Below, piece by piece: positions 6,901 through 20,000 of a DNA stretch of 20,000 bases (positions are counted from its first letter, which is position 1; every line of letters starts with the position of its first letter). The notes beneath the pieces were generated by a model that saw only the letters and a list, made by a program, of their open reading frames with translations, did not search any database and was not told the origin of the DNA. A program made the translations under genes and the position numbers. This DNA comes from an uncultured virus (IMG/VR IMGVR_UViG_3300032167_000096). Its lineage: Duplodnaviria; Heunggongvirae; Uroviricota; Caudoviricetes. Location of the stretch: positions 53,952 to 73,951 of the IMG/VR virus record IMGVR_UViG_3300032167_000096, one strand, 5' to 3'.

Positions 6901-9900
6901 TAAGTGCATTACCCGTGTCAATTGTAGTATTCTTTTCTCTTACAATACCCTTATTAAGTACTGCAATTTTAATACCATTAATAACGCCCTTTACAAGACC
7001 AAGGAACATGCTAGGCAAGTTCTTGATTAGTATTGCTACAAGAGGAGTTACAATATTATCCATTGCAAGACCCCAACCGGCAATAATCTTAGGAACAACG
7101 TCATTTACAAGAATGCCAGAAATTCCACCCTTACCTTCATACCAATCTTTGATCTTGGTAAAGAATCCTCCGATCTTCTCAACAACACCACCAGTGCCTA
7201 AGAAGATTTGTTTCATCTTATCACCAAGGCCACCAAGAAGACCATTCTTTACAACGTTACCATCAGCATCTTTCTCTCCAAATAGGAAAGATTTTAATTT
7301 AGGCCATACGGATGTTTTAATCCATTCAGAACCCCATCCAAGAAGTGAAAGTCCTCCGGCTGCAAGAGCTATCTTGCCAGCAGTAGTTCCAAGACCACCA
7401 GTAAGGAAACTAAAGATACCCTTAATACCTTTACCAATGCCGCCAAAGATCTTTCCAAGGAAGCCACCTCCCTCTTCATCATCTTTGCCTTTCTTCTTCT
7501 TGCCGAATCCTAAGCCTTCGCCAATACGTTGAAGCCATGTTGCAGATTCTCTGGTATTGGCATCATTCTCATCCTCTTCAGCCTCTTCTTGCTCTGCAGC
7601 TTGTCTAGCTTCAGTAGCTTCCTTAGAGTCTTCATCATGATGAGGAATAAATTTAGAAGCAAAGCCTGTAACTGCTTGACCAACTTTACTGCCTTTTGCT
7701 TTATTAAGCATTCTCTGGACAAGAGTAGGCTTGGCAGATCCATCGACCCCAGCTGCTTCAGCAGCTATAACGTCTTGCTGTGCTTCTTCTTTCTCCGCTT
7801 TTTCTCCAGCAGCATCTGCAATCTTTGCAATTTCAGAAGATGCCGGTCCCTTAGGAGCTTCTATAGTGGCAGGAACTCCAGATTTTCCATCAGTTAATTG
7901 CGGAACACCCTTCTGCTGACCTTCTTCATTACCAGGAGGTGTAGTTTTTTCAGCCTCTCCAGTAGGATCAAGCTGAATCTTGATCAATTTGATGATTTCA
8001 TCGATTTTGCTGTTAGCACTCTGGAATTGCTGAGAAACAACATCTGTCTGCTGCTTAGTAGCATCTAATATAGCTGCTTCAGCAGGATGCTCTTTCTTGA
8101 AAGCTTCATCTGCTGCAGCCGCAGCTGCTGCATCTGATTCTTTCTTTTTCTTTTCTTTTTCTGCAGCTTTGGTACGAAGAGCTATTTCTGCATCTACAGA
8201 TCTCTTGACATCTCTAAGACCCTTCTTATCCTTAACCTTATGACCAAGAATTTTAGAGAGTCCCTTATTGCCTTTTTTAAGATCTGCATTAGCCTTCTTA
8301 AGCTCTGCATTTGCGCCTTCAGCAGCCTCTACTTTAGCCCCGAGACGCTGCTTAAGATCTGCTTTTTCTACAGGAGTGAGATTAGGCTCTGCATCAATAA
8401 GACGGTGCATCTCTTCAAGATCTCCGTCTGCTCCAGCGCGAGCAATCTTCTTTACATATTTAAACTTAGTGACATCATATCTTAATGTGCCATCAGGGTT
8501 TGTTTCGTTAAAGAATGCAGAGATTTCCCGACCAAGCGCACCTCTAGCTTCAACTACAGCTTTACTTGCAGTTTGACGACCTTCAAGAGTTCCGCCAGCT
8601 TGAGCAGACATTGCTTGAAGTTCTTCAAGAGAAGCATTTGCAAGATACTCGTCTTGTTTCTGCATCTTATCAGCACCACGTACTTTGGAAAAGTAGTTAC
8701 GAACGCCATGCTTCTTTCTAAAGTCTAGACGCTCTTGTGCTGTCATATCTCTAGCTTTACCCTTATTGATTTGCCCCATTCTCATAGAATTGCCAATAGC
8801 ACCAAGAGCTTTGAAAGGAGCTGCTACAGCAACTTTAGCAATCTTAAGAGGGAACTTCAAGATGTTGAAGAACAACTTAGTCATCGGTTTGAAGACTTTC
8901 TCCTGAAGGAAATCATGAATCGGGATTCCGAGATATTTTTCAGCAACACGATTAAATGCATCTTTAACCCCATCGCCGATAGAGGTTATCATATTCTTTA
9001 GACCTTGCTTAAAAGGCTCCCAGAAATTCTTAAGAGGCTCAAGAAGATGCTTCTTAGCATATCCTTTAAATCCTTCAAGAATCTCATTAATCTTTTCTTT
9101 AGCAGGTTCAAGAATACCTCTCTTCATTGCACCAACAAGGCTACCCTTCTTAGGATCGTCAGGATCACCAAATACAAACTTATGAAAAGCAGAAGTACTA
9201 GAAAGCAATCCAACTCCAGCACCCATAATTGCATTACCAAGAAGACCAAAGGGCCCCATAAGAATACCAGCACCAGCACCAATAAGCATACTAGGAGCTG
9301 CTTTCTTAAGGTGTTTCTTAAACTTATCAAAGGATTCTTTCTTTAAGAATCCACCCTTACCATCCTTGTCACCGAATACAAATTCTTTAAACTTTTCATT
9401 ATTCTTTAAGAATCCGATAGAAGAACCGATAATAGCACCGCCAAGAGGTCCAAGAGGAGTCACAAGACCCAATAGACCACCAGCTATACCAAGATCTGTC
9501 ATATCTTTACCAGATTTCTTAAACATATCCACAAGACCCTTAGGCATCAGGCCCTTCTTATAAGTACCATCTTCCATCTCTTTACCAAAGAGAGCAGTCT
9601 TGAGAGTATCAGAACTTTCGATAATAGAAATACCAGCACCTGCCATAGCACCAAGTAGAGGGTTGAATCCGGTCAAAAGACCAGCAGCTCCACCAAGAAT
9701 ACCACTTGCGGCAGTTCTAGCACCTTTACCTTTATTCTCTTCCATGATCTTACGAAGGTTTGCCTTCATTTGATCAGTATTTACAGTACCTTTAGCATTT
9801 AATCCAATAGCATTGATTATTCTTCTACGATCTCTTCTCTCAAGAGCCTCCATAGCCTGCTGCTCTCTAGGATCGAAAGAAGCAGGAATAATCATTTCGC

Positions 9901-12508
9901 CAGGAGATACCATGGTAAGACCACGCTTGGTTGCATAAGTTCCGCGAGCATTAGTATCAACAACATCTTCTCCAGATTTAGCTGCTTCAACAACTTCTCC
10001 TGTAGGAACTACTTCACCCTTTTTCATACGGGTCTTTACAGTATCATAAGCTCTGCCAAATGTATTTCCAACTCCTTCTTTGAAACGACCAAAACCTTTC
10101 TTTGCCATTCCGAATACCTGATCTTTAACAGGCTTTCCGTACTTTTCCCAAAGAGGCTTAATCTTTTCTTTGAAGAAATCAGATATAGTATTTTTAACGT
10201 TCTTAAATTGCTCTTTAAACCAGTTTCCGATATCAGCAAAGGTATCTTTAACCTTCATAGTGATATACTGGAATACGCTCTCGACTTTGTTTCCATCTTT
10301 ATCCTTAAGATCAAGAGTGCCAAACATCATCTTGAACATGCTTTCATCAGCTTTATTAATAAGCTTAGTGACATAGTTTAAAGGCTTGGAGACAATATCG
10401 GCAGCGCCGCCAAGCATCTTACCGAAAAGTTTGCCTATAGGAGAGTTGCCCATCTTGTCGCGAACCCAGTCACCTAGACCTTTTTTCTTAGTACCAGATG
10501 CAGCCCTAGCTGCTTCATCAGCCTTAAGACTCTCCCAAACATCATCCCCTAATGGGCCATCATCATCTGAGGCCGGGTCAGGGTCGCCGCCAGAATCATC
10601 TGAACTTTCAGATCCGCTTCTGCGACTTCCTCCTTCTCTATGAGATGACGGTGTTCTAGTATTGGCATAACATCTATTTTTATTCTTCTTATTATGCTTA
10701 AGAGTAATAGCATTAAGAATTTCTCTAAGATAATGGAACACATTGTGTCCTTGTTCATCTTTACTAAGAGATAGCCATCCAGAACCTTTTGCAAGACCAG
10801 TATAATCAACACGTTTGCCTTTACCAGAAGGATCCATTTCAAAAGCTCCATTATAGAGCTGACGGCTAATACCACCATTGGCTTCTTCGGCAAGACGAGC
10901 ATTTGATACACGCTGTCTAGCATCCATATTTGATTTAGCAATATCGCGAACAGTAGTTCTGCTCATACGTCCATATGCTAAATCGAAATCTCTTTTACTC
11001 TTGAATCCATAATGTTTCCAAGCATCAGGATCATTAGGTCTGAAATCTCCACCATCTTTATAAATCTGCATAATCATTCTATCAACAGATTTGGACATGG
11101 ATCTCGCCTGTCCTTCGTTTATAGCTTTTAGCTGATCAATAAGAGGTTGAATATCAGACTTAATACTACTATTTGCATTTGCAATAGCAGAAGTTTCTAC
11201 GGCATCATATTCCTTAGCGATTCTTCTAGCACCTTTCCAAGTACCACCTTGATAATCATAGTAACGTTCATCATTACCTGTCAATGCGGCTTCGATTCTA
11301 GCAAGATAACCAGGAATGGTTTCAATGATAGCTTGACGAGTAATACCGTCAAAGGGGACAGCATCCTTCTTATACTTTGAAGGATCAATATTATCTTTCT
11401 TAGCAATATCAATACCAAAAATAGATGCTACGATATCCCAAAGTCCTCCGCTAACATCATTTTTCTTAGTATTCATTCTTGCAACGAACTGCGAGAACAT
11501 GCTCGTCAGCCCCTTATCAAAAGATTTTAAAGACTTCTTAAAGTCTTTAGACATGATATTATCAATCATAAATGAAGTGAAGATCTTCATTGGAGCTGCT
11601 GCGAAAGCCATGAAGGGGTTACCTCCACCGAGATCGAAACCTCCAATGCCGTATTCACTCATAAGATTGCCAATATTGCCTTTTACATTCTTAAAATATC
11701 CGGCAATATCAATTCCTCCACCAGCAGTGAAGGACTGATCAAGCTTGCTAGGCTTAGCAGCTTCCTGCTGTGCCTTATACAGATTTCTCTGCATTTCAAG
11801 CATTTCTTTCATCATACCCTGAGTCTCTTCAAGAGATCTAAGGCTAGCCTCATAGTATTTTCTGGAGTTCTCCATATGGGAAACAAGAGGACCATTGAGG
11901 AACTTATTTACAGAATCTACTGCGGTGTAAACACTTCCCATACTAGAAGAAATGATAGAAGCGCTTCTATCCATTTGAGCCATCATGAGTTGTGTTGAAG
12001 CCTCATTAGACTGAGTAACCAGTCTAACACCTTTTGCGACAGTGGAATTAGTTGACATGGCAGCGGCCCCAATAGACTGATCAAGTCTATCGGACATAGC
12101 ATTTGTTGAAGCGATAGTTGCTTTGGTACCATCATCTACGCTTTCATTATCCCAAGAAAAATCAAGATCATCATCACCGAAGCCTTCATCAAGACCAAGG
12201 ACCTGATCACTGTAGTCTCTTTCATTATAGAATTTACCACTCTTCAGGTCTTCGCCAAGATTTCTTGCGCCGACTTTAATAGCTTGATAGAGATTACTCT
12301 GCTTAATGCTCTTGGCAGCATTTCTAGCAGTCTGGCGATAATTCTTAGCACCAGAATAAGATTCTCTGAAAATATCATTATTTGTTTCAATAAAGTCTTT
12401 AATACCAGATGTATTTTCGGACACAGCGTCGATTGTGGCAAAGGCTAGCGACTTTCCCACATTAGCGACATATCTAGTTACTTTAGGTAATTTTAATTTG
12501 GCGGCCAT
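911..12508 (-). CDS. Giant (~3865 aa) tape-measure/ejection-type virion protein with C-terminal C39-like peptidase and tail-lysozyme-like domains
   Basis: 11.6-kb ORF. AGGAGG (12524-12519) is 1 nt from ATG 12517 but 10 nt from ATG 12508, so the MAAKLK start is preferred. Ala/Gly/Lys-rich with periodic Trp/Phe, Gly-zipper segments, a GEMIIP motif (~9885-9905), 75-aa repeats and C-terminal hydrolase-like domains. Confidence 0.8.
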   Translation of the reverse strand: MAAKLKLPKVTRYVANVGKSLAFATIDAVSENTSGIKDFIETNNDIFRESYSGAKNYRQTARNAAKSIKQSNLYQAIKVGARNLGEDLKSGKFYNERDYSDQVLGLDEGFGDDDLDFSWDNESVDDGTKATIASTNAMSDRLDQSIGAAAMSTNSTVAKGVRLVTQSNEASTQLMMAQMDRSASIISSSMGSVYTAVDSVNKFLNGPLVSHMENSRKYYEASLRSLEETQGMMKEMLEMQRNLYKAQQEAAKPSKLDQSFTAGGGIDIAGYFKNVKGNIGNLMSEYGIGGFDLGGGNPFMAFAAAPMKIFTSFMIDNIMSKDFKKSLKSFDKGLTSMFSQFVARMNTKKNDVSGGLWDIVASIFGIDIAKKDNIDPSKYKKDAVPFDGITRQAIIETIPGYLARIEAALTGNDERYYDYQGGTWKGARRIAKEYDAVETSAIANANSSIKSDIQPLIDQLKAINEGQARSMSKSVDRMIMQIYKDGGDFRPNDPDAWKHYGFKSKRDFDLAYGRMSRTTVRDIAKSNMDARQRVSNARLAEEANGGISRQLYNGAFEMDPSGKGKRVDYTGLAKGSGWLSLSKDEQGHNVFHYLREILNAITLKHNKKNKNRCYANTRTPSSHREGGSRRSGSESSDDSGGDPDPASDDDGPLGDDVWESLKADEAARAASGTKKKGLGDWVRDKMGNSPIGKLFGKMLGGAADIVSKPLNYVTKLINKADESMFKMMFGTLDLKDKDGNKVESVFQYITMKVKDTFADIGNWFKEQFKNVKNTISDFFKEKIKPLWEKYGKPVKDQVFGMAKKGFGRFKEGVGNTFGRAYDTVKTRMKKGEVVPTGEVVEAAKSGEDVVDTNARGTYATKRGLTMVSPGEMIIPASFDPREQQAMEALERRDRRRIINAIGLNAKGTVNTDQMKANLRKIMEENKGKGARTAASGILGGAAGLLTGFNPLLGAMAGAGISIIESSDTLKTALFGKEMEDGTYKKGLMPKGLVDMFKKSGKDMTDLGIAGGLLGLVTPLGPLGGAIIGSSIGFLKNNEKFKEFVFGDKDGKGGFLKKESFDKFKKHLKKAAPSMLIGAGAGILMGPFGLLGNAIMGAGVGLLSSTSAFHKFVFGDPDDPKKGSLVGAMKRGILEPAKEKINEILEGFKGYAKKHLLEPLKNFWEPFKQGLKNMITSIGDGVKDAFNRVAEKYLGIPIHDFLQEKVFKPMTKLFFNILKFPLKIAKVAVAAPFKALGAIGNSMRMGQINKGKARDMTAQERLDFRKKHGVRNYFSKVRGADKMQKQDEYLANASLEELQAMSAQAGGTLEGRQTASKAVVEARGALGREISAFFNETNPDGTLRYDVTKFKYVKKIARAGADGDLEEMHRLIDAEPNLTPVEKADLKQRLGAKVEAAEGANAELKKANADLKKGNKGLSKILGHKVKDKKGLRDVKRSVDAEIALRTKAAEKEKKKKESDAAAAAAADEAFKKEHPAEAAILDATKQQTDVVSQQFQSANSKIDEIIKLIKIQLDPTGEAEKTTPPGNEEGQQKGVPQLTDGKSGVPATIEAPKGPASSEIAKIADAAGEKAEKEEAQQDVIAAEAAGVDGSAKPTLVQRMLNKAKGSKVGQAVTGFASKFIPHHDEDSKEATEARQAAEQEEAEEDENDANTRESATWLQRIGEGLGFGKKKKGKDDEEGGGFLGKIFGGIGKGIKGIFSFLTGGLGTTAGKIALAAGGLSLLGWGSEWIKTSVWPKLKSFLFGEKDADGNVVKNGLLGGLGDKMKQIFLGTGGVVEKIGGFFTKIKDWYEGKGGISGILVNDVVPKIIAGWGLAMDNIVTPLVAILIKNLPSMFLGLVKGVINGIKIAVLNKGIVREKNTTIDTGNALKELNGGVANSNAMYNALGDAKGSVKNMFSTAKSSAAYTANKAAEINYGSLFGVNDAKADETYDANGNKLNKSGQDIMYEDGFLGSKKSTNQLYYDENGNIAIDQYDTWNTTDSLASKGAKVAGRGFLHGLLGRKNPIFTALGKISGKGIGKGTAKVVTGGMGKAAKWSGKIFGGSNKLGQKLNSWMTNTPVYTADEVAKAFGTSADDIAKAMGKKAGYSADDIAKAFGSNVDDVGKFMAKNADDVVEGAAKSATKSKGVLSKIKDKIFGKAGKEAAETAATKTGSKVAKEVVEETAEKVVKNADDVAKHGPKIIAKIKNFFTEIAGNSKIIGFIKKACKKAGTDDGVIKKALSAIADKIGKVATKIGKSGVGKLAGKLAKCIPYLNIALYVADFLWGYNNADTILGVAKGDESFKVGFGHKVLCGLLHLITTNLTFGLVPTETLVDIIVEFLFPLFGLSADELMAARERADDIMDAWNEAHPDDTYTNLEDFNNKDKWWFKAKKAVKGALGKAGTWIKDTAGKAWSGIKSGASTAWEWAKEKASNVWEGVTSFFSNVGSTFGKLFDGFKDTFSAIGKGIGKVLSFAWKGDLKGAYKYSVEENKESPVTSKIANIILGIGKVFYTPVILITSLVGKIKDVFVKLFDAAKQVIPAVGQGMADTFKGAWKGEFCKGQIKSTGNEMLDKVSNAILFVGKIVTLPVQFGAFLIGKVVGAVKKVIDAAKNVLPNVGQGMADTLKKAWNGEFCQGQIKPTGNDMLDKVSEAILTVGKIVTLPVQFGAFAIGSVVRGVKKVIDVAKEIVPNIASGTGQLFAAAWKGEDADVQLKSTDNDLLDKIQNVVFGIVKVVTFVPRTLTYAVGRVVDGVKAVINAAKVIVPNVAKGTGQLFKDAWKGEDNGGELESTGNDLLDKIQNVVFGIVKVVTFVPRTLTYAVGRVVDGVKAVIDAAKKIIPNVATGTKNLFVSAWKGEDNNSTLPSTGNDLLDKIQNVVFGIVKVVTFVPRTLTYAVGRVVDAVKSVINAAKLIIPNIAKGTGDLFVSAWKGQENNSELPSTGNELLDKIQGGIFGVVKVMTFVPRTLTYAVGRVVDAVKSVINAAKLIIPNVAKGTGQLFVDAWKGQENNSELPSTGNELLDKIQGGIFGVVKVMTFVPRTLTYAVGRVVDAVKAVIDGSKKIIPNIATGTGNLFKDAWKGEDNDRTLPSTGTDLLDKIQNGIFGVVKVITFIPRTLTYAVGRVVDAVKTVIDGAKKIIPNILSGTGNLFTSAWKGEESDESLPTTGVDLLDKIQNVIFGVVKVVMFVPRTLTYAVGRVVDTVKGFIDGSKLIFPKVGSAFGTLFTKAWAGEELPSKVESTGNSTCDTIANVIFNIGKVLMTPVTLVIQAIGKIKEGITTAIQKVKDGFTFKDLTSGITEAASNLGEKIKSGISGAWDKISGAFSSAWDTVKGWFSSNASDDAAKMRAHYGLGHKYQSGPELAGMPYGDSTIGKAGCGPVAATNAINRLRGAGSMSVRKAADYAEDKGMTIPGGGTDIGYFKSFLNSQNIDATNTTNRGAIMEALKNGQQVIMLGQDKTNKHGATFGTTPHFVTAIGLDANGNIVVEDPDMPQSSLVYKKDKVLNSMMTSTIVSGKGRGRYGLGDGENGEEEGRKTSFNALMSSFGSLTSSLVKSMFGEDAYNAISGSTSEAEFENPEIAAKLWKYLRSKGFSEHGAAGIMGNIYNSSKFKTANLEDSKEEDLGTDVGYTYMVDRGQKTREQFATDGSGYGMTMWHSANRKRKLYDATVKKGASIGDLDAQMKFLVDNMKSERSSLYSALRGSTDHAAASDAYLKQYHMDDKTDESLDYETPKGYAATIYDTYHGSAHNADFKKNAGRARDALNSYETEDARTSRIMTSAGRANAMAKTVDYATFLQTIVTLLMNISDNSALLVKILDILSSKFNIDIDPEEVNKAANQGKARTERALADLIKKGGGDAGSVSKMLNGSDNEYILTAMAAIAKE
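1335..1830 (-). other. Phage tail lysozyme (Phage_lysozyme2-like) domain, catalytic Glu apparently absent
   Basis: LWKYLRSKGFSEHGAAGIMGNIYNSS...GYGMTMW...RKRKLY...DLDAQMKFL...AASDAYLKQYH matches the family pattern GAAGIxGNxxxES...GYGLxQW...QLxF...FE except at the E, Q and E positions. Boundaries approximate. Confidence 0.7.
2030..2510 (-). other. Peptidase C39-like (papain-fold) domain
   Basis: Q(2495-97)...TIGKAGCGP (Cys 2435-37)...HFV (His 2153-55)...VEDP (Asp 2102-04): Q/C/H/D residues in the expected order. Boundaries approximate. Confidence 0.8.
2700..5200 (-). repeat. Intragenic tandem repeat with a 225-bp (75-aa) unit; 10 in-phase copies plus one degenerate copy
   Basis: The AWxG anchor recurs at 2876, 3101, 3326, 3551, 3776, 4001, 4226, 4451, 4676 and 4901 (exact 225-bp period) and off-phase at 5138. 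Unit approximately IIPNxxxGTGxLFxxAWKGExxxxxLPSTGNxLLDKIQxxxFGxVKVxTFVPRTLTYAVGRVVDxVKxVIxxAKx. Confidence 0.95.
9165..9715 (-). repeat. Three Gly-zipper hydrophobic repeats within the giant protein
   Basis: GILGGAAGLLTGFNPLLGAMAGAG...LFG; GIAGGLLGLVTPLGPLGGAIIGSSIG...FVFG; LIGAGAGILMGPFGLLGNAIMGAGVG...FVFG. Confidence 0.7.
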
Positions 12509-12539
12509 ACCAATCATTCCTCCTTTCTTTTGAGGATTT

Positions 12540-12551
12540 TAATACTATGTT
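12540..12551 (-). promoter_or_regulatory. Putative phage late promoter AACA-TAGTAT-TA
   Basis: Exact AACA-N6-TA about 32 nt upstream of ATG 12508, downstream of the RNAP-gene terminator. Confidence 0.6.
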
Positions 12552-12620
12552 CACAGTATAAAAGTTGGCTAAGATAATCTAATTCGACCAAATTCAATGC
12601 AATTAGAACATTTTAAAATA

Positions 12621-12658
12621 CAAAAATAGACGTAGAAGTGTAAGAACTTCTACGTCTA
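12621..12658 (-). terminator. Intrinsic terminator of the RNAP subunit gene
   Basis: 13-bp stem TAGACGTAGAAGT (12627-39) / ACTTCTACGTCTA (12646-58) with a 6-nt loop, then TTTTTG on the minus strand. Confidence 0.85.
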
Positions 12659-12685
12659 AAATTTATTATTTTTGAAGAAATTTTA

Positions 12686-15600
12686 TCATTCCATATCTTC
12701 CAAAGGAGTCCATGGAATACCCATAATTTCTTTTACCTGACGATCCAATTCTATCATACATTTATTTATAGCTCCAGATGTCCATACGGAAGTAACCATA
12801 CGAGCATTGAATGATCTAGCTGCATATAGAGCATGGATCTTCTCATCAGGTCTATACTCAGAGAACGGCTCATATCCTTTAGGGAAGATGTTTTTAACAA
12901 CGCCTTTATTTGCCGACTGAGCAACTGTCTTATCTCCAACGGAAAGTTTATCAAAATATTTAATATAGAATACAATTTTTATTCCATCATTATTATTCTT
13001 CATAATTCCTGTTGGAGCCATCTTATAGTCAGGATCAAGAAGATTTTCTCCAGGCATATTATGCTTCTTATAAAGTTTTCTAGTCTCTTGAATCTTCTTT
13101 TCATAACTTGTAACAAGAGCTTTCAGACTATCAGACATTTCGTCAATTTCGCAAGTACGATAAATCTTAATATCCTGAATTACTCCAGTATATTTACTCT
13201 TAAGACGAATTCTTCCCAAATCCGATACATATTCTGGATCTGTGATATTCTTTAAGAGCATATTTGCATCTTTCTCATCGAAAGAATTTTGGAATATAAG
13301 TAAAGGATCGCCCTCCTGCACAGACTGCCCAACTTTAACAATCTGATACAAGTTAGTTTCCTTAGAAAGATCAACATCTTTTTCTACAACTACATCGGTA
13401 GCCATTGCTTCAGACAGCCAATCAGATACAGATGTAGAGTCTTCAAAACCTTCATCGGTATTCATAATTGCTACCTTAGCCAAAACTCCCAAGTTGTATG
13501 CAAGATTATCTGTCTCTCCATTCTTATTGGAGAACGAGGTTCTATCATATGCTATAATATCACCTTTCTTAAATTTAGATCCAACTTTAAGATCTGTATC
13601 CAATTTAAGAGTAATATAGAAACCGCCATCAGAGTTCTTCTTGACTTCTTCTTTGAGATCAACATACTCAGATGTAAAAGCTTGGCCCTCTTGGTTGTAT
13701 ACAGGTTTCTTATATGATACAATCATATGACTATTATCAATTATTTCTATAACTTCTCCATCTTCTTTTGCTTTAAATGCAAAAGTATCAGATGCTATAT
13801 GTGCCATGGCTTCATCCGCACCATTGGTAATAAGAAGAGGCATAGATTTTTGAGTTCTCATAGAGTGTTTAGATGTCTGAATAAATGTCATCGCAGAACG
13901 GAACGGGTCATCTCTTGTTGTTCCGAAAGGAGTAACAGCTTCAGTCATACTAAACGTCTTAGTTACAGACATATCATCAGGATTGGTGGATTTGATATAT
14001 CCACGGGTTCCTTCAATGTCCATATCTACGGTTGTCTGCCTGTTGATACCAACGTTGGCAGCAAATCCAGTAGACAATGCAAGTTTATTAATCATTGAAT
14101 CATCATATGTACGTTTATCGAGACCATATGATCTATCAGAGTTCATACCAGAAAGGCCTTTAAACGATACGGAATTAGATGCTTCAATTTCAAGAAGCGG
14201 GTTAAGGATAGACAAATCAGAGGACATTGGGTCTTCCATAATACCATCGATAACAGCACTTCTCTTTATAGAAATACCAACTTTCCTACCACGCTTAACC
14301 TGAGCTTTGTACTCTACATATGCTCTAGCAAGAGCTTTGTAAACATATCCAGCTACAATCTCTGTAGTTCTATAGCGGTTACCAGAAATATCAGTATGAC
14401 GATTATATTTATTATCTGCAAGAAGATTATTTGCATAAATGAGCATTTCAAAATAATCTGAAGGAATTCCACAATACTCACAAACTTCTGCAGTAATAGG
14501 ATCTACGAATAGATCGACGAAGTTATCGAGACCATCGGATAGGATTCTTCCCCCAAAATCATCAAGGAAGTCTAGCCACATGGCTCTCGAATCTACATCT
14601 GCAATAGAATAATTTTCTGTCGGGCATTCTGCAAGACCATTAAAGAGCATGGAAGTTGCATAATTAATAGGATAAACAAATAAACCATCAGAAAATTTAA
14701 TTGCTGCCTCTTTATCGGGGTCGTATTTGGTTCTCTTATCATCATAAAATTTAGCATTAGTATCACACATTATCTTGGCAATTTTATGCAAACCAAGAGA
14801 ATATCCTAAAAGCACAATAAGAGGAATTTTATTCGCAAGAATACTTGCCTCGGAATAATTGAGTCTAGATGCTGGTTTAATACTATTATAGAGTGATCTA
14901 AAGTCCTCAGAAACAAAACCAAGTTCTTTTGCTATTACGTATGATAATAATCCTTGATTATTATCAGCATAATAGCATACCGATTCATCTGCTTTATTAA
15001 TAGCATATGGAATGCCATTCTTCTTTTCAATTTTATAATGAGTATAATACTCATCTTGATTAAAGAAATAGGTCTTTTCTTTTGTTTCAATCCTATTAAC
15101 TTCAGAAGCCAAATCTATATAATCAACAGGAAGTTCGTATTTAGAGCAAATAGCTTTATTATCACCAAAATATACTTTAATTGCAGCATTATTTTCATGC
15201 TTTCTTAAAGCTTTTAGAAGCTTATCCACAGATGGATATGATCTTCCTTGTAAGCCATGACGGCGAATAAATATTTTGTTATAGTTACTTACGCACTGTA
15301 CAGTGTCTTCATCTGTTTTAAGACAAGGAAGTAAAAGAAGCTGTCCAGACATAACCTTTTCATTTCCACGAAGTCTCATGAAACGATTATTTTTAAATTT
15401 CGGCACATCAAATACAAGTGTAGATCTCTTACCAAAACCATCTTCAACAGTCACAGTATAAGTTTCAATATAGTCCATATTAGTAGAAGTATCTTCCACC
15501 TTAGTTTCGACTACATTAATAGGATAGCTTGTTTTCGAAAGATGATAAAGAGCAGCATAAATATCTGCACTAATATTATACTGATTATTGAAGCTAAGAA

Positions 15601-16483
15601 ACTTCATATCGTCCCATTCTTCATTAATCGAAGTCACCTTCAAATGCTTAGGCTCAAGCTTAACTGCTGGTTTTGAAATGAGCTGACGTATAGTCTTATC
15701 TCCAACAACTTTCTTATTTAAGAATTCATCATTGAGCTTGGACATTCTTTCAGTTCTAGCCGCATTAAATTTGGGCTTGCCATCATCTTCTTCATCAAGT
15801 TCAGCAATAAGAGATTTAATATACTCATCAGAATTTAATTTCTCCCATGCTTCTTCTTCAGTTTCTGAAGATTCAGACGCTGCATTAATAGCATCAATAA
15901 GATCCTGTTTCTTTGCCTTGGTTTCTTCCTTATCTGCCTCTTTCGTATCCGTAACAACATCTTTAACTGGAGATTTATTTTCATTATCATCCTTCGATTC
16001 GGAAGAAAATCTCTTAACAGTTGGAGTTGCATTCATTATAAGAGTACTTATTAGCTCAGAAACAATCTTATATTCCGTTGCCTTATATTGATCTGCATAA
16101 AGTGCAAAACTTTCTTTATTTTCATTATAAAAAATAAAGATATAATCTGAAAATACTTTCTTAAATTCTGTAGGAGCTTTCTTTATATATCTACAAATAG
16201 CTCCGAGAGGAGTTTTAGATTCCTCAATAGCATTTTGATCTTTCCTATACCATTTCGATACAGGAATATAAATGATCTTTTCTCTATAACCTTCAAGTTT
16301 TTGGCAAAGGTTTTTTAGAGAATTCATATAAGCCTCATCTTCTTTATATTGAATAGAGGAAGTATCTATAATGGCATTTTTGCCATTAAGCTCTTTTATC
16401 GAATCAGTAGTATTCTTAATACCTTTCTTTTTCAAGGAATTAGCAATTACCTGATCCAATACTGCTTCATTATAGGAATACAT
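12686..16483 (-). CDS. rpoB: Phage-encoded multisubunit RNA polymerase beta-like subunit (large fragment; probably virion RNAP, phiKZ gp178-type)
   Basis: Divergent beta motifs in order: FMRLRGNEKVMSGQL, AANVGINRQT, TPFGTTRDDPFRSAM (cf. PFLEHDDANRALM), EGFEDS (cf. GYNFEDS), VKVGQSVQEGD, VGDKTVAQSANKGVV (cf. GDKMAGRHGNKGV), SFNARM (cf. GVPSRM). Lacks the C-terminal beta part and has a ~300-aa N-terminal extension. AGGAGG RBS 9 nt upstream. Confidence 0.92.
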   Translation of the reverse strand: MYSYNEAVLDQVIANSLKKKGIKNTTDSIKELNGKNAIIDTSSIQYKEDEAYMNSLKNLCQKLEGYREKIIYIPVSKWYRKDQNAIEESKTPLGAICRYIKKAPTEFKKVFSDYIFIFYNENKESFALYADQYKATEYKIVSELISTLIMNATPTVKRFSSESKDDNENKSPVKDVVTDTKEADKEETKAKKQDLIDAINAASESSETEEEAWEKLNSDEYIKSLIAELDEEDDGKPKFNAARTERMSKLNDEFLNKKVVGDKTIRQLISKPAVKLEPKHLKVTSINEEWDDMKFLSFNNQYNISADIYAALYHLSKTSYPINVVETKVEDTSTNMDYIETYTVTVEDGFGKRSTLVFDVPKFKNNRFMRLRGNEKVMSGQLLLLPCLKTDEDTVQCVSNYNKIFIRRHGLQGRSYPSVDKLLKALRKHENNAAIKVYFGDNKAICSKYELPVDYIDLASEVNRIETKEKTYFFNQDEYYTHYKIEKKNGIPYAINKADESVCYYADNNQGLLSYVIAKELGFVSEDFRSLYNSIKPASRLNYSEASILANKIPLIVLLGYSLGLHKIAKIMCDTNAKFYDDKRTKYDPDKEAAIKFSDGLFVYPINYATSMLFNGLAECPTENYSIADVDSRAMWLDFLDDFGGRILSDGLDNFVDLFVDPITAEVCEYCGIPSDYFEMLIYANNLLADNKYNRHTDISGNRYRTTEIVAGYVYKALARAYVEYKAQVKRGRKVGISIKRSAVIDGIMEDPMSSDLSILNPLLEIEASNSVSFKGLSGMNSDRSYGLDKRTYDDSMINKLALSTGFAANVGINRQTTVDMDIEGTRGYIKSTNPDDMSVTKTFSMTEAVTPFGTTRDDPFRSAMTFIQTSKHSMRTQKSMPLLITNGADEAMAHIASDTFAFKAKEDGEVIEIIDNSHMIVSYKKPVYNQEGQAFTSEYVDLKEEVKKNSDGGFYITLKLDTDLKVGSKFKKGDIIAYDRTSFSNKNGETDNLAYNLGVLAKVAIMNTDEGFEDSTSVSDWLSEAMATDVVVEKDVDLSKETNLYQIVKVGQSVQEGDPLLIFQNSFDEKDANMLLKNITDPEYVSDLGRIRLKSKYTGVIQDIKIYRTCEIDEMSDSLKALVTSYEKKIQETRKLYKKHNMPGENLLDPDYKMAPTGIMKNNNDGIKIVFYIKYFDKLSVGDKTVAQSANKGVVKNIFPKGYEPFSEYRPDEKIHALYAARSFNARMVTSVWTSGAINKCMIELDRQVKEIMGIPWTPLEDME

Positions 16484-17347: not shown

Positions 17348-17394
17348 ATTGTACATACTGCCTGTTGAAATGGCGGTATGTACAATATATTTTT
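17348..17394 (+). terminator. Terminator-like hairpin in the 5' leader of the endonuclease gene
   Basis: 15-bp stem ATTGTACATACTGCC (17348-62) / GGCGGTATGTACAAT (17372-86) with one U.G pair on the + strand, followed by ATATTTTT. Confidence 0.6.
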
Positions 17395-17414
17395 GTGATA
17401 AAGGGGTGATTATA

Positions 17415-18230
17415 ATGATAGAACCGATGAATCCTTTATATGAAACATTAAAACTAGAAATAAAGCGGTATGAGATTCAAGAGCAGCTAGCATTTGACGA
17501 AGTATTACAAGAATTAAGAAGAGATCGAGTAATTAATATCTACAACACAACTTCATCAGATAATAAATACACTGGAAATGTATTCTTATCTAAAAACTGT
17601 GGCGAGTTTATGGTAACTGAGTATTTTAATTATGACAAAATAGCTGTTATATTTTTAAATAGCGGTTATCGAATGCTTGCTAGAGCAAATAATATTAATA
17701 AAGGCGAACTTAAAGATCCATATGCTAAATCTATCTTAGGAATAGGTTGTATTGGCGTTGGACCTTATAGGGTCGATGGAAATCCATTTGAAAGAATGGT
17801 ATACTCTAGATGGCGAGGAATCTTAGATAGATGCTATGTAAAGAGAGAAAGACACAAAAGTGTACACCCAGAATGGTGGAACTTTCAGTACTTTGCTGCT
17901 TGGTTTACAGCATCTTTTTATTCGGTACCTTACAATTCTATGTATGATATGGTTGTCGATAAAGACGTCCTTTGCCCAGGAAATGAGGAATACGGTCCTT
18001 ATAAATGTCTTATACTTCCGAACTTTATAAATGCAAAAGTTCAAGTAAAAGACTTTGAAAAAGACCGCATTGAAGCTCTTATGAGTGGGCAGATGTCACA
18101 ATTCGAAATTTTAAAACTTTTTAAGTATAAAGAGGCTAAAGAGAGTCGAATACGATCGCTAGCTGATGAAAATCGAAATATTTTACCGCCACATGTATTT
18201 TTGGCAATAAAGAACTATCGACTGTTCTAA
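17415..18230 (+). CDS. Putative free-standing HNH-type (homing) endonuclease, 271 aa
   Basis: Pattern YSRWRGILDRCY...EWWNFQYFAAWF...VDKDVLCPGNEEYGPYKCLILPNFIN matches phage HNH-like endonucleases (YxxWxxMLxRCY...WxxFxxFxxW...DKD...GNxxYxPxxC...N). Start moved to ATG 17415 after the AAGGGGTG RBS; the track's TTG 17349 lies inside the hairpin. Confidence 0.7.
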   Translation: MIEPMNPLYETLKLEIKRYEIQEQLAFDEVLQELRRDRVINIYNTTSSDNKYTGNVFLSKNCGEFMVTEYFNYDKIAVIFLNSGYRMLARANNINKGELKDPYAKSILGIGCIGVGPYRVDGNPFERMVYSRWRGILDRCYVKRERHKSVHPEWWNFQYFAAWFTASFYSVPYNSMYDMVVDKDVLCPGNEEYGPYKCLILPNFINAKVQVKDFEKDRIEALMSGQMSQFEILKLFKYKEAKESRIRSLADENRNILPPHVFLAIKNYRLF

Positions 18231-18253
18231 GAGGGATTTACCGTCCCTCATTT
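18231..18253 (+). terminator. Weak terminator-like hairpin after the endonuclease gene
   Basis: GAGGGA (18231-36) / 7-nt loop / TCCCTC (18244-49), then ATTT, immediately after the TAA. Confidence 0.45.
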
Positions 18254-18301
18254 ACATATTTAAAGGTAGTAAAAGCGTTAATTATAATTCAAAAACGTGA
18301 A

Positions 18302-18313
18302 AACTATTTAATA
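18302..18313 (+). promoter_or_regulatory. Putative phage late promoter AACT-ATTTAA-TA
   Basis: Motif 25 nt upstream of leader ATG 18339. Confidence 0.55.
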
Positions 18314-18338
18314 ATTCCAATAAAGGAGGAATTTAAAT

Positions 18339-18458
18339 ATGATTAAAATTCGTAACACCCCCCCCCCATGTCAAGTGATTCGAAAACTTCTCACGGGGCT
18401 TTTTAACAGCGTTAAAAGGGTATTGATTGTACGGAGGGAGGTGCTCTGTAATGGGTGA
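18339..18458 (+). CDS. 39-aa leader ORF (MIKIRNTPPPCQVIRKLLTGLFNSVKRVLIVRREVLCNG) containing a poly-C tract and overlapping the next start
   Basis: Strong AAAGGAGG RBS (18322-29) 9 nt before the ATG. The frame is open to TGA 18456-58, overlapping ATG 18451 (ATGGGTGA). Too short for the ORF track. Confidence 0.7.
   Translation: MIKIRNTPPPCQVIRKLLTGLFNSVKRVLIVRREVLCNG
18358..18367 (+). repeat. C10 homopolymer (candidate slipped-strand phase-variation tract)
   Basis: Ten consecutive C in AT-rich DNA. No comparable G/C run was noticed elsewhere in the window. Confidence 0.85.
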
Positions 18459-19902
18459 AGCTTTAATGTCCCGTTATGGTGGAGGTTCATCTTCCTCGGA
18501 CGAAAAGATTATTGCGCAAGTTAATGTAACTACTGCAGCTCATGCAACCATTACATGCGCAGGATGCGGAACTGTTCTTCAGAGAACTCCCGCAGATGGT
18601 ACGTCCACTTTCTGGCTTGAAGCCGGCGATTGGGTTATTTCTAGTACCGCTTCTGGATCTAGAAATATTACTATTACGGCAGCAGAAGTGATCGACGTCA
18701 ATCTTACTCAGGTTACCTATGGTATTAGTATCGATATGAGTAATACAGATCCTGAATCTGCAGTTACATACATCGATGATGCTGTAGGTCTTAATCCTCT
18801 TTCGGTAAATCTCGAAACCGGTGAATGTAACTATGGCGACTGGGAAGAGATTATTACCGGCGGATGGGGAGTAAAGCCCTGTCTATATAAAGATGGTGCC
18901 AGATCTGTTTATCTTAATCCTAATAATTATAGCAAGACAGTTACTGGTGCCGATGCCGACATTACTTCTGGCGCTGCTGGAGATGTAATGGTCGAATTTA
19001 AGAAGACTTGGTATAAGTATTCTAAGTCTGGAAATATTCTAACATTCCAGGTTGCTAACTATGACAGATCTGCAGACGGATTTGTAACTTCTGCATTTAA
19101 GACCATGGATGGCAGCGATGGAGTTGCAGGAACTGTTCGCGATTATATGTATTTCGGTGCATATGAAGCGTATGGCGATGCGGAAAATAATAAGGCTCGT
19201 AGCTTGAGCGGTAAGAGTGTAAGTAATGGTGAAAACTATTGGACTTATCAGAACTATCGCACAAATTGCAAAGCTATGGGTGCTAAATATGGCATGGAAG
19301 ACTGGTGTAAGAGATATTATATTCTTGGTCTTCTCATGCTTGTTACCAAAACTCGTGAATGCCAGGCGGCAGTTGGTTATGGTAATATTAGCGTAGGCAC
19401 TGGTACATCTGGATTGATTAATGCCGGTACTATGGACACCAAGGGTCTCTTCTTTGGTGGTAAGAATAAGGGTACTGGAGTTAAATGCTTCGGTATCGAA
19501 AATATGTGGGGTAATACTTATTCTTGGTGTGATGGCATTCAGATTGAGTCTGAATCATCTATTTTGATTAAGGATTGCCCGCCTTATAAAGATGCATATG
19601 ACGGTGAAGATACAAGTTCGTATACTTCTGTTGGTCATTCTTTGCCTGTATGGGAATCTCTGTATCCTACAGAAATGTCTCCTGTACTTGGGGGAGCGGC
19701 TATTTTTGCATCTGTTGGTCAGTCTGATTCTACAATTGGTTGGCCAGATTATCTTTGCGTCGGCGGCGACTCCGGCTGTGTTGCCTATGTCGGTGGTGGC
19801 TACTGGGGTAACCTGGCGAATGCTGGTCCCTTCTGCGCCGTCGTCGACTACAATCCCTACGACAGCATCGACGGTTATGTCGGGCGCCTTGTTGCGGCCT
19901 AA
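18451..19902 (+). CDS. Putative tail fibre/receptor-binding protein with C-terminal C-type-lectin (Mtd/FGE-like) fold; DGR target candidate, 483 aa
   Basis: GGAGGTG RBS (18437-43) 7 nt before ATG 18451. MGEALMSRYGGG start, beta-rich Ig-like segment, YFGAYEA, GIENMWGNTYSWCDG (cf. GNVxEW), and a terminal VGGGYW...AGPF...GRL typical of CLec-fold DGR targets. Confidence 0.8.
   Translation: MGEALMSRYGGGSSSSDEKIIAQVNVTTAAHATITCAGCGTVLQRTPADGTSTFWLEAGDWVISSTASGSRNITITAAEVIDVNLTQVTYGISIDMSNTDPESAVTYIDDAVGLNPLSVNLETGECNYGDWEEIITGGWGVKPCLYKDGARSVYLNPNNYSKTVTGADADITSGAAGDVMVEFKKTWYKYSKSGNILTFQVANYDRSADGFVTSAFKTMDGSDGVAGTVRDYMYFGAYEAYGDAENNKARSLSGKSVSNGENYWTYQNYRTNCKAMGAKYGMEDWCKRYYILGLLMLVTKTRECQAAVGYGNISVGTGTSGLINAGTMDTKGLFFGGKNKGTGVKCFGIENMWGNTYSWCDGIQIESESSILIKDCPPYKDAYDGEDTSSYTSVGHSLPVWESLYPTEMSPVLGGAAIFASVGQSDSTIGWPDYLCVGGDSGCVAYVGGGYWGNLANAGPFCAVVDYNPYDSIDGYVGRLVAA
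19756..19902 (+). other. DGR variable region (VR) candidate with GC-rich IMH-like 3' end
   Basis: Last 48 sense codons: 63% GC, 12% A, 29 end in C and none in A. In contrast, 0 of 40 codons at 19621-19740 end in C. Ends GTCGGGCGCCTTGTTGCGGCCTAA. Confidence 0.8.
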
Positions 19903-19903
19903 C

Positions 19904-19942
19904 CCCTCGAGTTGAGGGTCGTAGGGGGCCGCGGCCCCCTAC
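19904..19942 (+). other. Tandem GC-rich hairpins/cruciform directly after the VR
   Basis: CCCTC-GAGTT-GAGGG (19904-18) and a perfect 22-bp palindrome GTAGGGGGCCGCGGCCCCCTAC (19921-42). Confidence 0.85.
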
Positions 19943-19946
19943 ACTC

Positions 19947-19996
19947 AGTCCCATTACACTAAAGCGAAGCGGCAGCGGAGCGAGTGTAATGGGACT
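19947..19996 (+). repeat. 14-bp inverted repeat enclosing four AGCG motifs
   Basis: AGTCCCATTACACT (19947-60) / AGTGTAATGGGACT (19983-96); loop AAAGCGAAGCGGCAGCGGAGCG; followed by TCTT at the window end. Confidence 0.8.
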
Positions 19997-20000
19997 TCTT

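Follow-up and report, generated by a model that had tools for sequence, protein, structure and literature searches.

A diversity-generating retroelement target gene behind a C10-bearing leader reading frame in an RNA polymerase-encoding jumbo phage

Phages are known to pre-diversify their host recognition in two ways, by diversity-generating retroelements (DGRs) and by homopolymer phase variation. The locus analyzed here raises the question of whether both act on one gene, since a fibre-type gene with a variable 3' end lies directly behind a short leader reading frame containing a run of ten C's. The locus is found in a 20,000-nt stretch of DNA from an uncultured virus (positions 53,952 to 73,951 of IMG/VR record IMGVR_UViG_3300032167_000096), which we refer to as the window.

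The fibre cassette and its retroelement

The original prediction described a single unit running from a promoter motif and a strong ribosome-binding site through a C10-containing leader and an overlapping fibre gene to a variable-region-like end and hairpins, and every one of these elements was located at its place in the window sequence, all on the plus strand. A putative sigma-70-like promoter, TTTAAA-18-TATAAT (18259..18288, 10 of 12 matches), lies just upstream of nt 18302, and its -10 block is kept across an alignment of three lineages. The phage encodes its own RNA polymerase (RNAP) besides having this sigma-70-like promoter before the leader. The Shine-Dalgarno sequence of the leader ORF, AAAGGAGG (18322..18329), is placed 9 nt before the ATG and is conserved in the related records L039 and L042. 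The leader ORF itself has 39 codons, from the ATG at 18339 to a TGA ending at 18458, and this stop lies within ATGGGTGA, the start of the fibre gene. The C10 homopolymer (18358..18367) reads ACC CCC CCC CCA, or T-P-P-P, in the leader frame. The fibre gene has a Shine-Dalgarno sequence of its own, GGAGGGAGG (18433..18441), which in the relatives is the predicted pairing partner of ACAC plus the C-run, and its ORF of 483 aa extends from the ATG at 18451 to the TAA at 19902, overlapping the leader ORF by 8 nt.

The variable region (VR) occupies 19751..19905, with adenine-linked differences at 19757-19874 and an invariant, IMH-like 3' segment at 19875-19901. DNA folding places a small hairpin directly after the fibre stop codon (19904..19918), a GC hairpin (9-bp stem, 4-nt loop) some 20 nt past the VR (19921..19942), and a long hairpin followed by a T-run (19947..19996), the terminator of the fibre gene. 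The T-run extends past the window end in record L002, and both the structure and the loop motif of the terminator hairpin are also kept in L003 and L004. Over window positions 19750-20000 the GC content climbs from ∼0.40 to 0.60-0.63.

The gene at 18451-19902 is almost certainly the single target of a working DGR. The window's own record, a 73,951-nt fragment with 30% completeness, breaks off 95 nt past the VR, and neither a template repeat (TR) nor a reverse transcriptase (RT) was found in it by blastn or with the RVT_1 profile, an outcome that carries no weight for the full genome. Two other records, L001 and L002, are 100% identical to window positions 18200-20000, and both continue into a TR and an RT; because records identical over this region carry the TR and the RT, we attribute both to the phage of the window. 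In L002 the TR lies 380 nt downstream of the VR, and the RT is a 495-aa protein (L002 12342-13829) that matches RVT_1 (E 3e-15) and phrog_1423 (E 2e-77). The RT gene and the TR/VR layout are the same in L003 and L004. Mismatches between VR and TR fall at TR adenines in 23 of 24 cases in L002, 27 of 27 in L003 and 17 of 17 in L004, while the 27 nt before the stop codon are identical between VR and TR, adenines included. In motif 4 of DGR reverse transcriptases SQ replaces the SP of group II introns, and the translated RT contains G-Y-Y-T-S-Q. Bordetella phages are among the tblastn matches of the RT, and an Rfam scan gave a sub-threshold RT-18 match between TR and RT.

The natural variants agree with this assignment. 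The VR encodes residues 434-483 of the 483-aa fibre protein, and among the full-length members of its 90% cluster (n = 10, the 455-aa member P0126 excluded) nine carry 16-27 residue differences relative to the window protein, of which 15-20 lie within the 26 codons that hold TR adenines; for one protein, P0124, all 16 differences are in such codons. What had been predicted as DGR diversification of the fibre 3' end is thus borne out by the TR, the RT and natural variation of the VR at TR-adenine codons. The suggestion that one TR/RT pair is shared by paralogous fibres was not: the TR matches only itself and a single VR in G002 and in G003, and with a single VR in the 90%-complete record of 223,865 bp we reject the idea that one TR serves several fibres. 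Within the 13.4 kb of G004 that were covered (L004), the other poly-C cassettes share no repeat with the TR.

The arrangement can be compared with the DGR of the Bordetella phage BPP-1, whose order is mtd-avd-TR-brt. As in BPP-1, the VR forms the 3' end of the target gene on a C-type-lectin fold, the TR lies downstream and differs from the VR in an adenine-specific manner, the RT is of the DGR kind, and the 3' end of the VR is invariant with a GC hairpin just beyond it. In all three lineages a GC stem of 9-11 bp, closed by a loop of 3-4 nt, occurs about 20 nt past the stop; its sequence differs among them, L003 and L004 having an equivalent stem of 10-11 bp at the position of the 19921-19942 hairpin. 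This hairpin sits where the target-recognition hairpin of BPP-1 does, and presumably plays the same role. Unlike in BPP-1, no Avd, an accessory protein that some DGRs lack, was found; the small ORFs around TR and RT have no Pfam or PHROG match, and those spanning the TR are probably an in-frame copy of the VR. Further differences are a Lys-rich extension of ∼150 aa in the RT, lying outside the coverage by phage relatives, a genome of 224 kb with its own RNAP where BPP-1 is a 42-kb temperate phage, and the C10-bearing leader ORF ahead of the target.

The target protein matches the 'tail protein' family phrog_5302 (E 6e-55). Its AlphaFold2 model (pLDDT 89.7) has an N-terminal beta-sandwich followed by a C-type-lectin/FGE-type domain at residues ∼141-483, and the predicted presence of a C-type-lectin-fold target in an RNAP-encoding jumbo phage is upheld by the match of this model to TaqVP (PDB 5vf4; Z 24.5, rmsd 3.1 Å over 265 residues for model residues 141-483). 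TvpA (2y3c) and Mtd follow, each with Z 12.9, and FGE with ∼12; sequence identity to TaqVP and TvpA is 13-15%. These two best structural matches are likewise DGR variable proteins. They are cellular proteins, whereas the target here belongs to a phage family and carries the extra N-terminal beta-sandwich. Adenine-specific mutagenic retrohoming rewrites ∼26 codons at the C-type-lectin tip of this protein, which is of the tail-fibre type.

The leader reading frame and its C10 run

The C10 run is not a product of chance, since 200 dinucleotide-shuffled versions of the window contained no such run; for the whole 73,951-nt record about 0.005 runs of at least ten C's or G's are expected and two are found. 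A C11 lies at record position 1529. Only run lengths of the form 3n+1 leave the leader ORF open to the fibre start. By frame analysis a C9 or C11 leads to a stop 3-12 codons past the run, and the range for C8, C9, C11 and C12 together is 3-20 codons. In all three lineages the leader frame reads through to the fibre start without a stop, with the other two frames closed, and the segments between run and start vary in length (83, 108 and 95 nt). The fibre start GTAATGGGTGA itself contains TAA/TGA in both of the other frames, and therefore only the openness of the leader counts as evidence; for each leader ORF taken singly, only ∼20% of shuffles match it.

Conservation in the leader is concentrated around the run. 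Across three lineages that share 49-55% identity in their fibres, the ribosome-binding site, the ATG and the C10 with the bases that follow show little or no change. In the peptide the first 12 residues are kept (M-I/F-K-I/N-R-N-T-P-P-P-C-Q) and the remainder is not conserved. CCC makes up 9.6% of Pro codons in the record of the window, and given the codon usage of this record the homopolymer spelling of T-P-P-P has a probability of 3.7e-4. The leader peptide is absent as a catalogued protein from the collection searched, and an Rfam scan of the leader gave nothing beyond a chance-level ar7 match.

Some uses of the run can be set aside. Fusion of leader and fibre by frameshifting is ruled out because the fibre frame stops three codons past the run. 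The C-run is unlikely to be a promoter spacer: the promoter-like site precedes the leader ribosome-binding site, and no consistent -35/-10 spacing was seen by eye around other C-runs. The AACA before the run was also judged by eye to be a poor fit to the AR9-type late promoter motif, given as AACA(N6)TW in the MarsHill preprint.

We consider it probable that the leader ORF is translated and controls fibre translation. The fibre gene would then be expressed from a leader in which an upstream ORF of 39 codons, equipped with a strong ribosome-binding site, is translated. Ribosomes on this ORF would open the leader RNA where ACAC and the C-run are predicted to pair with the G-rich ribosome-binding region of the fibre gene, and the same ribosomes would be delivered to the fibre start, i.e., the two genes would be translationally coupled. 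If the run slipped by one or two bases, the leader ORF would terminate 3-20 codons beyond it, and fibre synthesis would be lowered or switched off; slippage would then be a heritable and reversible dimmer added to DGR diversification. Two points weaken the last step. An out-of-frame leader need not silence the fibre, because the fibre gene has a strong ribosome-binding site of its own, and unmasking may not depend on run length, because a ribosome crosses the C-run in any frame. That slippage of the run is actually used as a switch is a possibility that we lean against. Taken as a whole, a DGR target gene behind a coupled C10 leader with slippage as the dimmer is our best explanation, and one that we put forward tentatively, at slightly under an even chance.

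Run length and alternative accounts of the leader

If the run acts as a switch, alleles of different length may be expected, and we judged these from assembled contigs and consensus sequences. The leader run is C10 in all five IMG/VR records that have the leader, and also in the five Logan contig pieces that read through it. Scanning IMG/VR with two patterns likewise returned C10 only, after one chance match (L028) was dropped. The sole possible length variant is an in-frame C7 in a relative, on a single 163-nt contig, and the spanning IMG/VR records and Logan contigs show no out-of-frame allele. Fibre homologs number 175 in our search, and more than 170 lie on ENA or Logan contigs; the count here covers the records and pieces just named. 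Contigs break at the C-run in three of four sequencing runs, which may be a trace of slippage but can also stem from sequencing error. Equal run length across lineages with ∼50% diverged fibres would fit constraint better than hypermutation.

Homopolymers elsewhere do vary. Among paralogous cassettes the run lengths differ, C11 versus C10, and a related 28.6-kb record has C10/C11 runs outside any clear ORF. In the same phage a paralogous gene occurs with G10 and with G12, without a single mismatch in the other 2,212 nt, and its full-length and truncated protein calls each recur in several assemblies. We take G10 as the ON allele and G12 as the OFF allele of this gene. The protein, P0140, has a structure model with a pLDDT of 29.1, no Pfam or PHROG match and a weak atlas lead to a tail-collar cluster (score 0.79), and to call it a fibre is a guess. 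For the ON/OFF layer that the original prediction assigned to the poly-C run, the frame logic, the conservation of the leader in three lineages and the poly-G polymorphism elsewhere speak in favour, whereas the invariant C10 of the consensus sequences, with no out-of-frame allele, and the strong ribosome-binding site of the fibre gene speak against. We regard the poly-C layer as plausible but unproven.

The strongest alternative is that the run is an RNA element, a cis-acting anti-Shine-Dalgarno arm that masks the fibre ribosome-binding site and is relieved by leader translation or by a run-binding factor. The homopolymeric make-up of the run would then do no more than mirror a purine-rich partner of the GGAGG type, and selection would hold the run length fixed, in keeping with the unchanged C10 in three diverged lineages. 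Pairing of the C-run with the fibre Shine-Dalgarno or start region is predicted in all three leaders. Specifically, the partner of ACAC and the C-run in the minimum-free-energy folds is the fibre Shine-Dalgarno for L039 and L042 and the AUGGGUG start region for the window, and the four 3' C's of the run are predicted to pair with a conserved GGGG block. In the 28.6-kb relative the C10/C11 runs and their flanks, which lie outside clear ORFs, pair with GGGGAGGGAGGGUGAU while the real Shine-Dalgarno sits in a CU-rich hairpin; the fold scores there are z -3.0 (L014) and z -4.8 (L008), and the four-segment layout is attenuator-like. However, the leader itself folds no better than shuffles (z -0.18 for the window and -1.61 for L003), and both arms are conserved, so that there is no covariation. 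A pure RNA element also leaves the conserved strong ribosome-binding site, the ATG and the open frame of the leader superfluous, and the difference between C11 and C10 among paralogous cassettes argues against a fixed length, as does another homopolymer that demonstrably varies in the phage. We therefore consider this account somewhat doubtful, while a serious contender.

It is also conceivable that the run merely encodes a stalling peptide. Polyproline stalls ribosomes, and in this case R-N-T-P-P-P-C-Q would pause them at the triple proline in a manner dependent on elongation factor P, so that the paused ribosome keeps the leader open and fibre translation is tied to how the host's own translation stands. 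Conservation of the 12 N-terminal residues and not of the rest is what such a peptide predicts. However, the preferred codons CCT and CCA would suffice for this purpose, yet the rare CCC is kept in all three lineages, and related runs in other cassettes lie outside ORFs, making the explanation improbable. Finally, that the small ORF and its C-run are functionless, a hitch-hiking or assembly-prone homopolymer in the 5' untranslated region, is very hard to credit: short-read assemblies do err at homopolymers, and contigs do break at the C-run, but the C10 is common to independent assemblies from at least four samples, such a run arose in no shuffle, and its flanks are conserved while the fibre falls to 49-55% identity.

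Relation to known systems

The coupled leader that we favour has partial counterparts. Campylobacter phages reportedly carry hypermutable poly-G tracts in receptor-binding-protein genes; these too are homopolymers of about ten bases in genes with a presumed role in host recognition. The Campylobacter tracts are part of the receptor-binding-protein frame itself, whereas the run at the DGR target belongs to a distinct ORF upstream and showed no length variants. In Helicobacter pylori tlpB, a length-variable G-repeat in the leader sets expression by pairing with the sRNA RepG (PMC8295292). The two cases share a leader homopolymer and a complementary C/U-rich or G-rich partner. The partner in tlpB is a trans-acting sRNA, while here the run is within an ORF and has its candidate partner in cis, in the Shine-Dalgarno of the fibre gene itself. 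Bacterial upstream ORFs are described as acting through translational coupling or occlusion of the ribosome-binding site (PMC13285730), and they resemble the leader in combining an upstream ribosome-binding site with a short ORF whose stop falls at the main gene's start. They lack a homopolymer, unlike the frame-dependent coupling via a slippery run proposed here.

In the literature covered, some of it available in part, we found no description of a DGR together with homopolymer phase variation on one gene or in one phage. A survey of 224 jumbo phages reported no DGR-type lectin (FGS) domains (PMC7824862), and the RT of the nearest cultured relatives was judged in a preprint not to be a DGR (bioRxiv 10.1101/2020.12.14.422802). 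By RNAP, the closest cultured phages share about 32% identity and have Listeria, Staphylococcus and Bacillus as hosts.

A broader and unlikely reading is that of a combinatorial host-range lottery, in which continuous DGR rewriting of the fibre tip and stochastic, heritable turning up or down of the fibre by C10 slippage are joined by independent poly-G ON/OFF switching of at least two paralogous proteins, maybe fibres; the C-run would double as an anti-Shine-Dalgarno arm whose length tunes both frame and RNA masking. If true, one burst would yield virions differing in their adhesin sets as well as in their adhesin sequences.

Should the leader not work as proposed, the cassette is still a clean and conserved case of a DGR target under regulation, in an animal-gut jumbo phage that encodes its own RNAP. 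If it does, the locus represents a compact and testable design, in which a hypermutating receptor-binding protein is gated by a slippery run within an upstream ORF coupled to it, and it would provide a rule for spotting such switches outside coding frames.

The fibre cassette and its phage

The 20-kb window closes a linear viral record of 73,951 nt with 35% GC and an estimated completeness of 30%. On the plus strand, a promoter-like TTTAAA-18-TATAAT motif (18259-18288) is followed by a strong ribosome-binding site (RBS), AAAGGAGG (18322-18329), and by a 39-codon leader ORF running from an ATG at 18339 to a TGA at 18458, which includes a C10 homopolymer (18358-18367). A second RBS, GGAGGGAGG (18433-18441), stands before the 483-aa fibre ORF (ATG 18451 to TAA 19902). 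The GC content is 60-63% in the final 150 nt of this ORF and the next 100 nt, compared with about 40% in the gene body, and three hairpins lie downstream of the stop codon. The original prediction had presented promoter motif, RBS, C10 leader ORF, fibre gene, VR-like 3' end and GC hairpins as one apparent unit, and each element was found as described. The C10 is beyond chance expectation: it was absent from 200 of 200 shuffles of the window, and the whole record, with an expectation of about 0.005 runs of at least 10 C or G, contains two, the C10 and a C11 starting at record position 1529.

The C11 (1529-1539) is intergenic and has equal length in the 223,865-bp record G002 (222321-222331). 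It is preceded by a terminator hairpin and lies 41 nt upstream of the RBS-led start of a small-protein gene, whose product is probably a membrane protein.

The window also encodes an RNA polymerase beta subunit (12686-16483, minus strand; phrog_3148, E 3e-150), whose closest cultured matches are in Listeria, Staphylococcus and Bacillus jumbo phages at about 32% identity, and a 3,868-aa tape-measure-like ORF (911-12517, minus strand) with a phage tail lysozyme domain (PF18013, E 2e-17). An HNH endonuclease gene (17349-18230, plus strand) sits between the polymerase gene and the fibre cassette. The stretch occurs in gut and faecal metagenomes of animals, sequenced in 13 studies.

The retroelement and its fibre target

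The window's own record contains neither a reverse transcriptase (RT) nor a second copy of the GC-rich end, and it stops 95 nt past that end. Two IMG/VR records with 100% identity over window 18200-20000 extend further: L001, from a contig of 80 kb, and L002, from one of 223,865 bp that is 90% complete. In L002 a copy of window 19751-19905 is located 380 nt downstream, and the two copies differ at 24 positions. At 23 of these the downstream copy has an adenine (17 A to G and 6 A to T changes), and the last is in the stop codon (TAG versus TAA). The downstream copy is followed by a 495-aa RT (12342-13829; RVT_1 E 3e-15, phrog_1423 E 2e-77) with an S-Q motif, which is typical of the enzymes of diversity-generating retroelements (DGRs). 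The proposal that the GC-rich 3' end is the variable region (VR) of a DGR is thereby upheld, since the suggested search located both the template repeat (TR) and the RT downstream, in sequence identical to the window.

The arrangement recurs. Two relatives with 55%-identical fibres have the same layout and an adjacent RT, and every difference falls at a TR adenine (27 of 27 in one, 17 of 17 in the other). The TR copy stood at an unchanged distance in all four sequencing runs compared with the window. The 27 nt of the VR ahead of the stop codon equal the TR, adenines included. About 20 nt past the stop, all three lineages have a GC stem (9-11 bp, loop of 3-4 nt) that is constant in position, not in sequence, and downstream of it comes a long terminator hairpin whose loop is conserved. 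Between TR and RT, the Rfam model RT-18 matches L002 at 12169-12229 with 32.9 bits, below the threshold of 41.3; at the same position more distant relatives give RT-18 above threshold (50.1 bits; L041 2946-3026, minus strand) and RT-17 (53.9 bits; L044 4803-4899). No Avd was found among the small ORFs around TR and RT using Pfam and PHROG. Because of this, the RT's own C-terminus might stand in for Avd: phage relatives align to residues 1-344 only, and the remaining approximately 150 aa are Lys-rich. Apart from itself, the TR matches just one VR, both in the 223-kb genome and in a 185-kb relative, so the idea that one TR and RT serve several paralogous fibres finds no support in these genomes.

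Natural variants show where the fibre changes. Its 90%-identity cluster has 11 members, 10 of them of 483 aa, one of which is identical to the window protein; the 455-aa member, whose tip is likewise different, was excluded from the variant count. The other nine 483-aa members differ at 16-27 residues, 15-20 of which fall in the 26 codons with TR adenines (residues 434-476), and in one member, P0124, all 16 differing residues do so. Judged by these variants, the DGR is active in nature.

The AlphaFold2 model of the fibre (mean pLDDT 89.7, pTM 0.87) matches the DGR variable protein TaqVP with Z 24.5 and an rmsd of 3.1 A over 265 residues (model 141-483), TvpA and Mtd with Z 12.9, and formylglycine-generating enzymes with Z of about 12; a beta-sandwich made of residues 19-86 stands apart from this domain. 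The fibre falls in the family phrog_5302 'tail protein' (E 6e-55), which is widely tied to DGRs, since 55 of 144 related loci carry an RT match beside the fibre homolog. Separately, G9-G13 or C10-C14 runs were seen 1-2 kb or less from distant fibre homologs in four metagenomic loci (L119 808-816; L123 142-154; L127 342-351; L150 1448-1461 and 2593-2602).

The leader ORF and its C10

Three lineages keep the leader ORF: that of the window, that of L003/L039, with a fibre 55% identical, and that of L042, with a fibre 49% identical. The RBS, the ATG, about 20 nt upstream of the run, the C10 itself and the next six bases are identical or nearly so in all three; the remaining leader has diverged with indels, giving spacings of 83, 108 and 95 nt between run and fibre ATG. 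In each lineage the C10 frame is open up to the fibre start (39, 45 and 43 codons) and the two other frames are closed, an openness retained by a fraction of 0.207, 0.204 and 0.199 of dinucleotide shuffles. Note that the conserved fibre start GTAATGGGTGA contains TAA and TGA in both other frames, so that an open leader frame must end there and the stop position is not added evidence. Conservation of the peptide is limited to its first 12 residues. By comparative sequence analysis this small ORF is genuine and conserved, and it is probably regulatory.

The run reads ACC CCC CCC CCA, and in the long ORFs of the record 60 of 628 proline codons are CCC. With this codon usage the probability of the spelling is 3.7e-4, which argues that the homopolymer itself is under selection. 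Frame analysis predicts that the leader ORF would stop 3-5 codons past the run for C9 or C12 and 3-20 codons past it for C11 or C8.

The run was C10 in all five IMG/VR records containing the leader, the window's own included, and in five Logan contig pieces spanning it; among these no out-of-frame allele was seen. In a single, low-depth 163-nt contig of an L042-like relative, seven C's align before the shared downstream bases, which would be an in-frame C7 allele. Contigs break at the C10 in three of four sequencing runs, and in the deepest (depth about 30) this is the sole break within the stretch. Such ends fit mixed run lengths, and also homopolymer sequencing error.

The main alternative to a length switch is that the C-run pairs as RNA with the ribosome-binding region of the fibre, which could also accompany such a switch. 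In the minimum-free-energy folds of L039 and L042, ACAC and the first C's pair with the fibre Shine-Dalgarno (SD), while in the window they pair with the AUGGGUG start region, and the final four C's are predicted to pair with a conserved GGGG block. However, the leader folds no better than its shuffles (z -0.18 for the window, -1.61 for L003).

Related runs occur in the 28.6-kb record G004, where three C10/C11 runs (L008, 1852-1861; L014, 10593-10603; L020, 13676-13685, minus strand) lie upstream of genes starting M-G-E. In these cassettes the run is succeeded by a G-rich pseudo-SD, a CU-rich segment, the true SD or a terminator-like hairpin, and finally the gene. Two homologous cassettes there differ in their runs, C11 versus C10. 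None of the three cassettes has a strong RBS with an ATG-started ORF across the run, the sole candidate being a TTG-started ORF of 32 codons over one run. Two of the three runs, with their flanks, are predicted to pair with a G-rich pseudo-SD, the true SD being part of a CU-rich hairpin (z -3.0 for L014), and the third leader (L008, z -4.8) instead combines a strong G-rich/CU-rich hairpin with a terminator-like alternative hairpin. Because of these predicted foldings, the G004 runs may serve as the first arm in an attenuator-like leader with four parts.

Poly-G switching in the same phage and the setting of the cassette

Four runs of at least 9 C or G are present in the 223-kb genome, two of them about 14 codons from the start of paralogous genes that encode roughly 470-510 aa (L035 2578-4004, plus strand, and 4192-5724, minus strand, within G002; also L187 and L188). 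One paralog has G12, with the frame closed seven bases past the run, and the second carries G10 with an open frame. A 106-kb record from a different sample carries the first paralog with G10 and no differences in the remaining 2,212 nt. The protein collection contains three full-length (474 aa) and three internal-Met-started (401 aa) forms of it, full-length and truncated calls alike recurring across public assemblies, and for an identical protein the ON and OFF forms each occur on 7 contigs; the second paralog has an additional 458-aa form starting at an internal Met. At the level of assembled sequence, homopolymer switching at the poly-G paralog is proven. The paralogs have no Pfam or PHROG match and one weak atlas lead (0.79) to a tail-collar cluster. 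Since conserved N- and C-termini flank a variable middle, our guess is that they may be fibres.

Position 1 of the window's record falls at most 6 nt from the end of G002 (223,859-223,865), in the conserved 5' part of one paralogous gene, and both assemblies probably break at that repeat.

The frame logic, the selected spelling of the homopolymer and the switching at another run in the same phage make use of the C10 as a slippage switch plausible; its constancy across lineages and the RNA-pairing alternative weaken the case, and we hold this reading only tentatively.

In the literature, DGRs are common in gut phages (PMC8241571), most targets of viral DGRs are tail proteins with a C-type-lectin fold, with no mention of jumbo phages found there (PMC8144416), FGS domains were not found in jumbo phages (PMC7824862), and Staphylococcus jumbo phages have an RT without DGR features (MarsHill preprint, PMC10638138). 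Searches of the literature on DGRs with jumbo or huge phages, or with homopolymers and phase variation, found no account of the cassette; supplementary DGR catalogues might list it. The DGR of this phage is certain; it is ordinary in mechanism but unusual for the phage that carries it.
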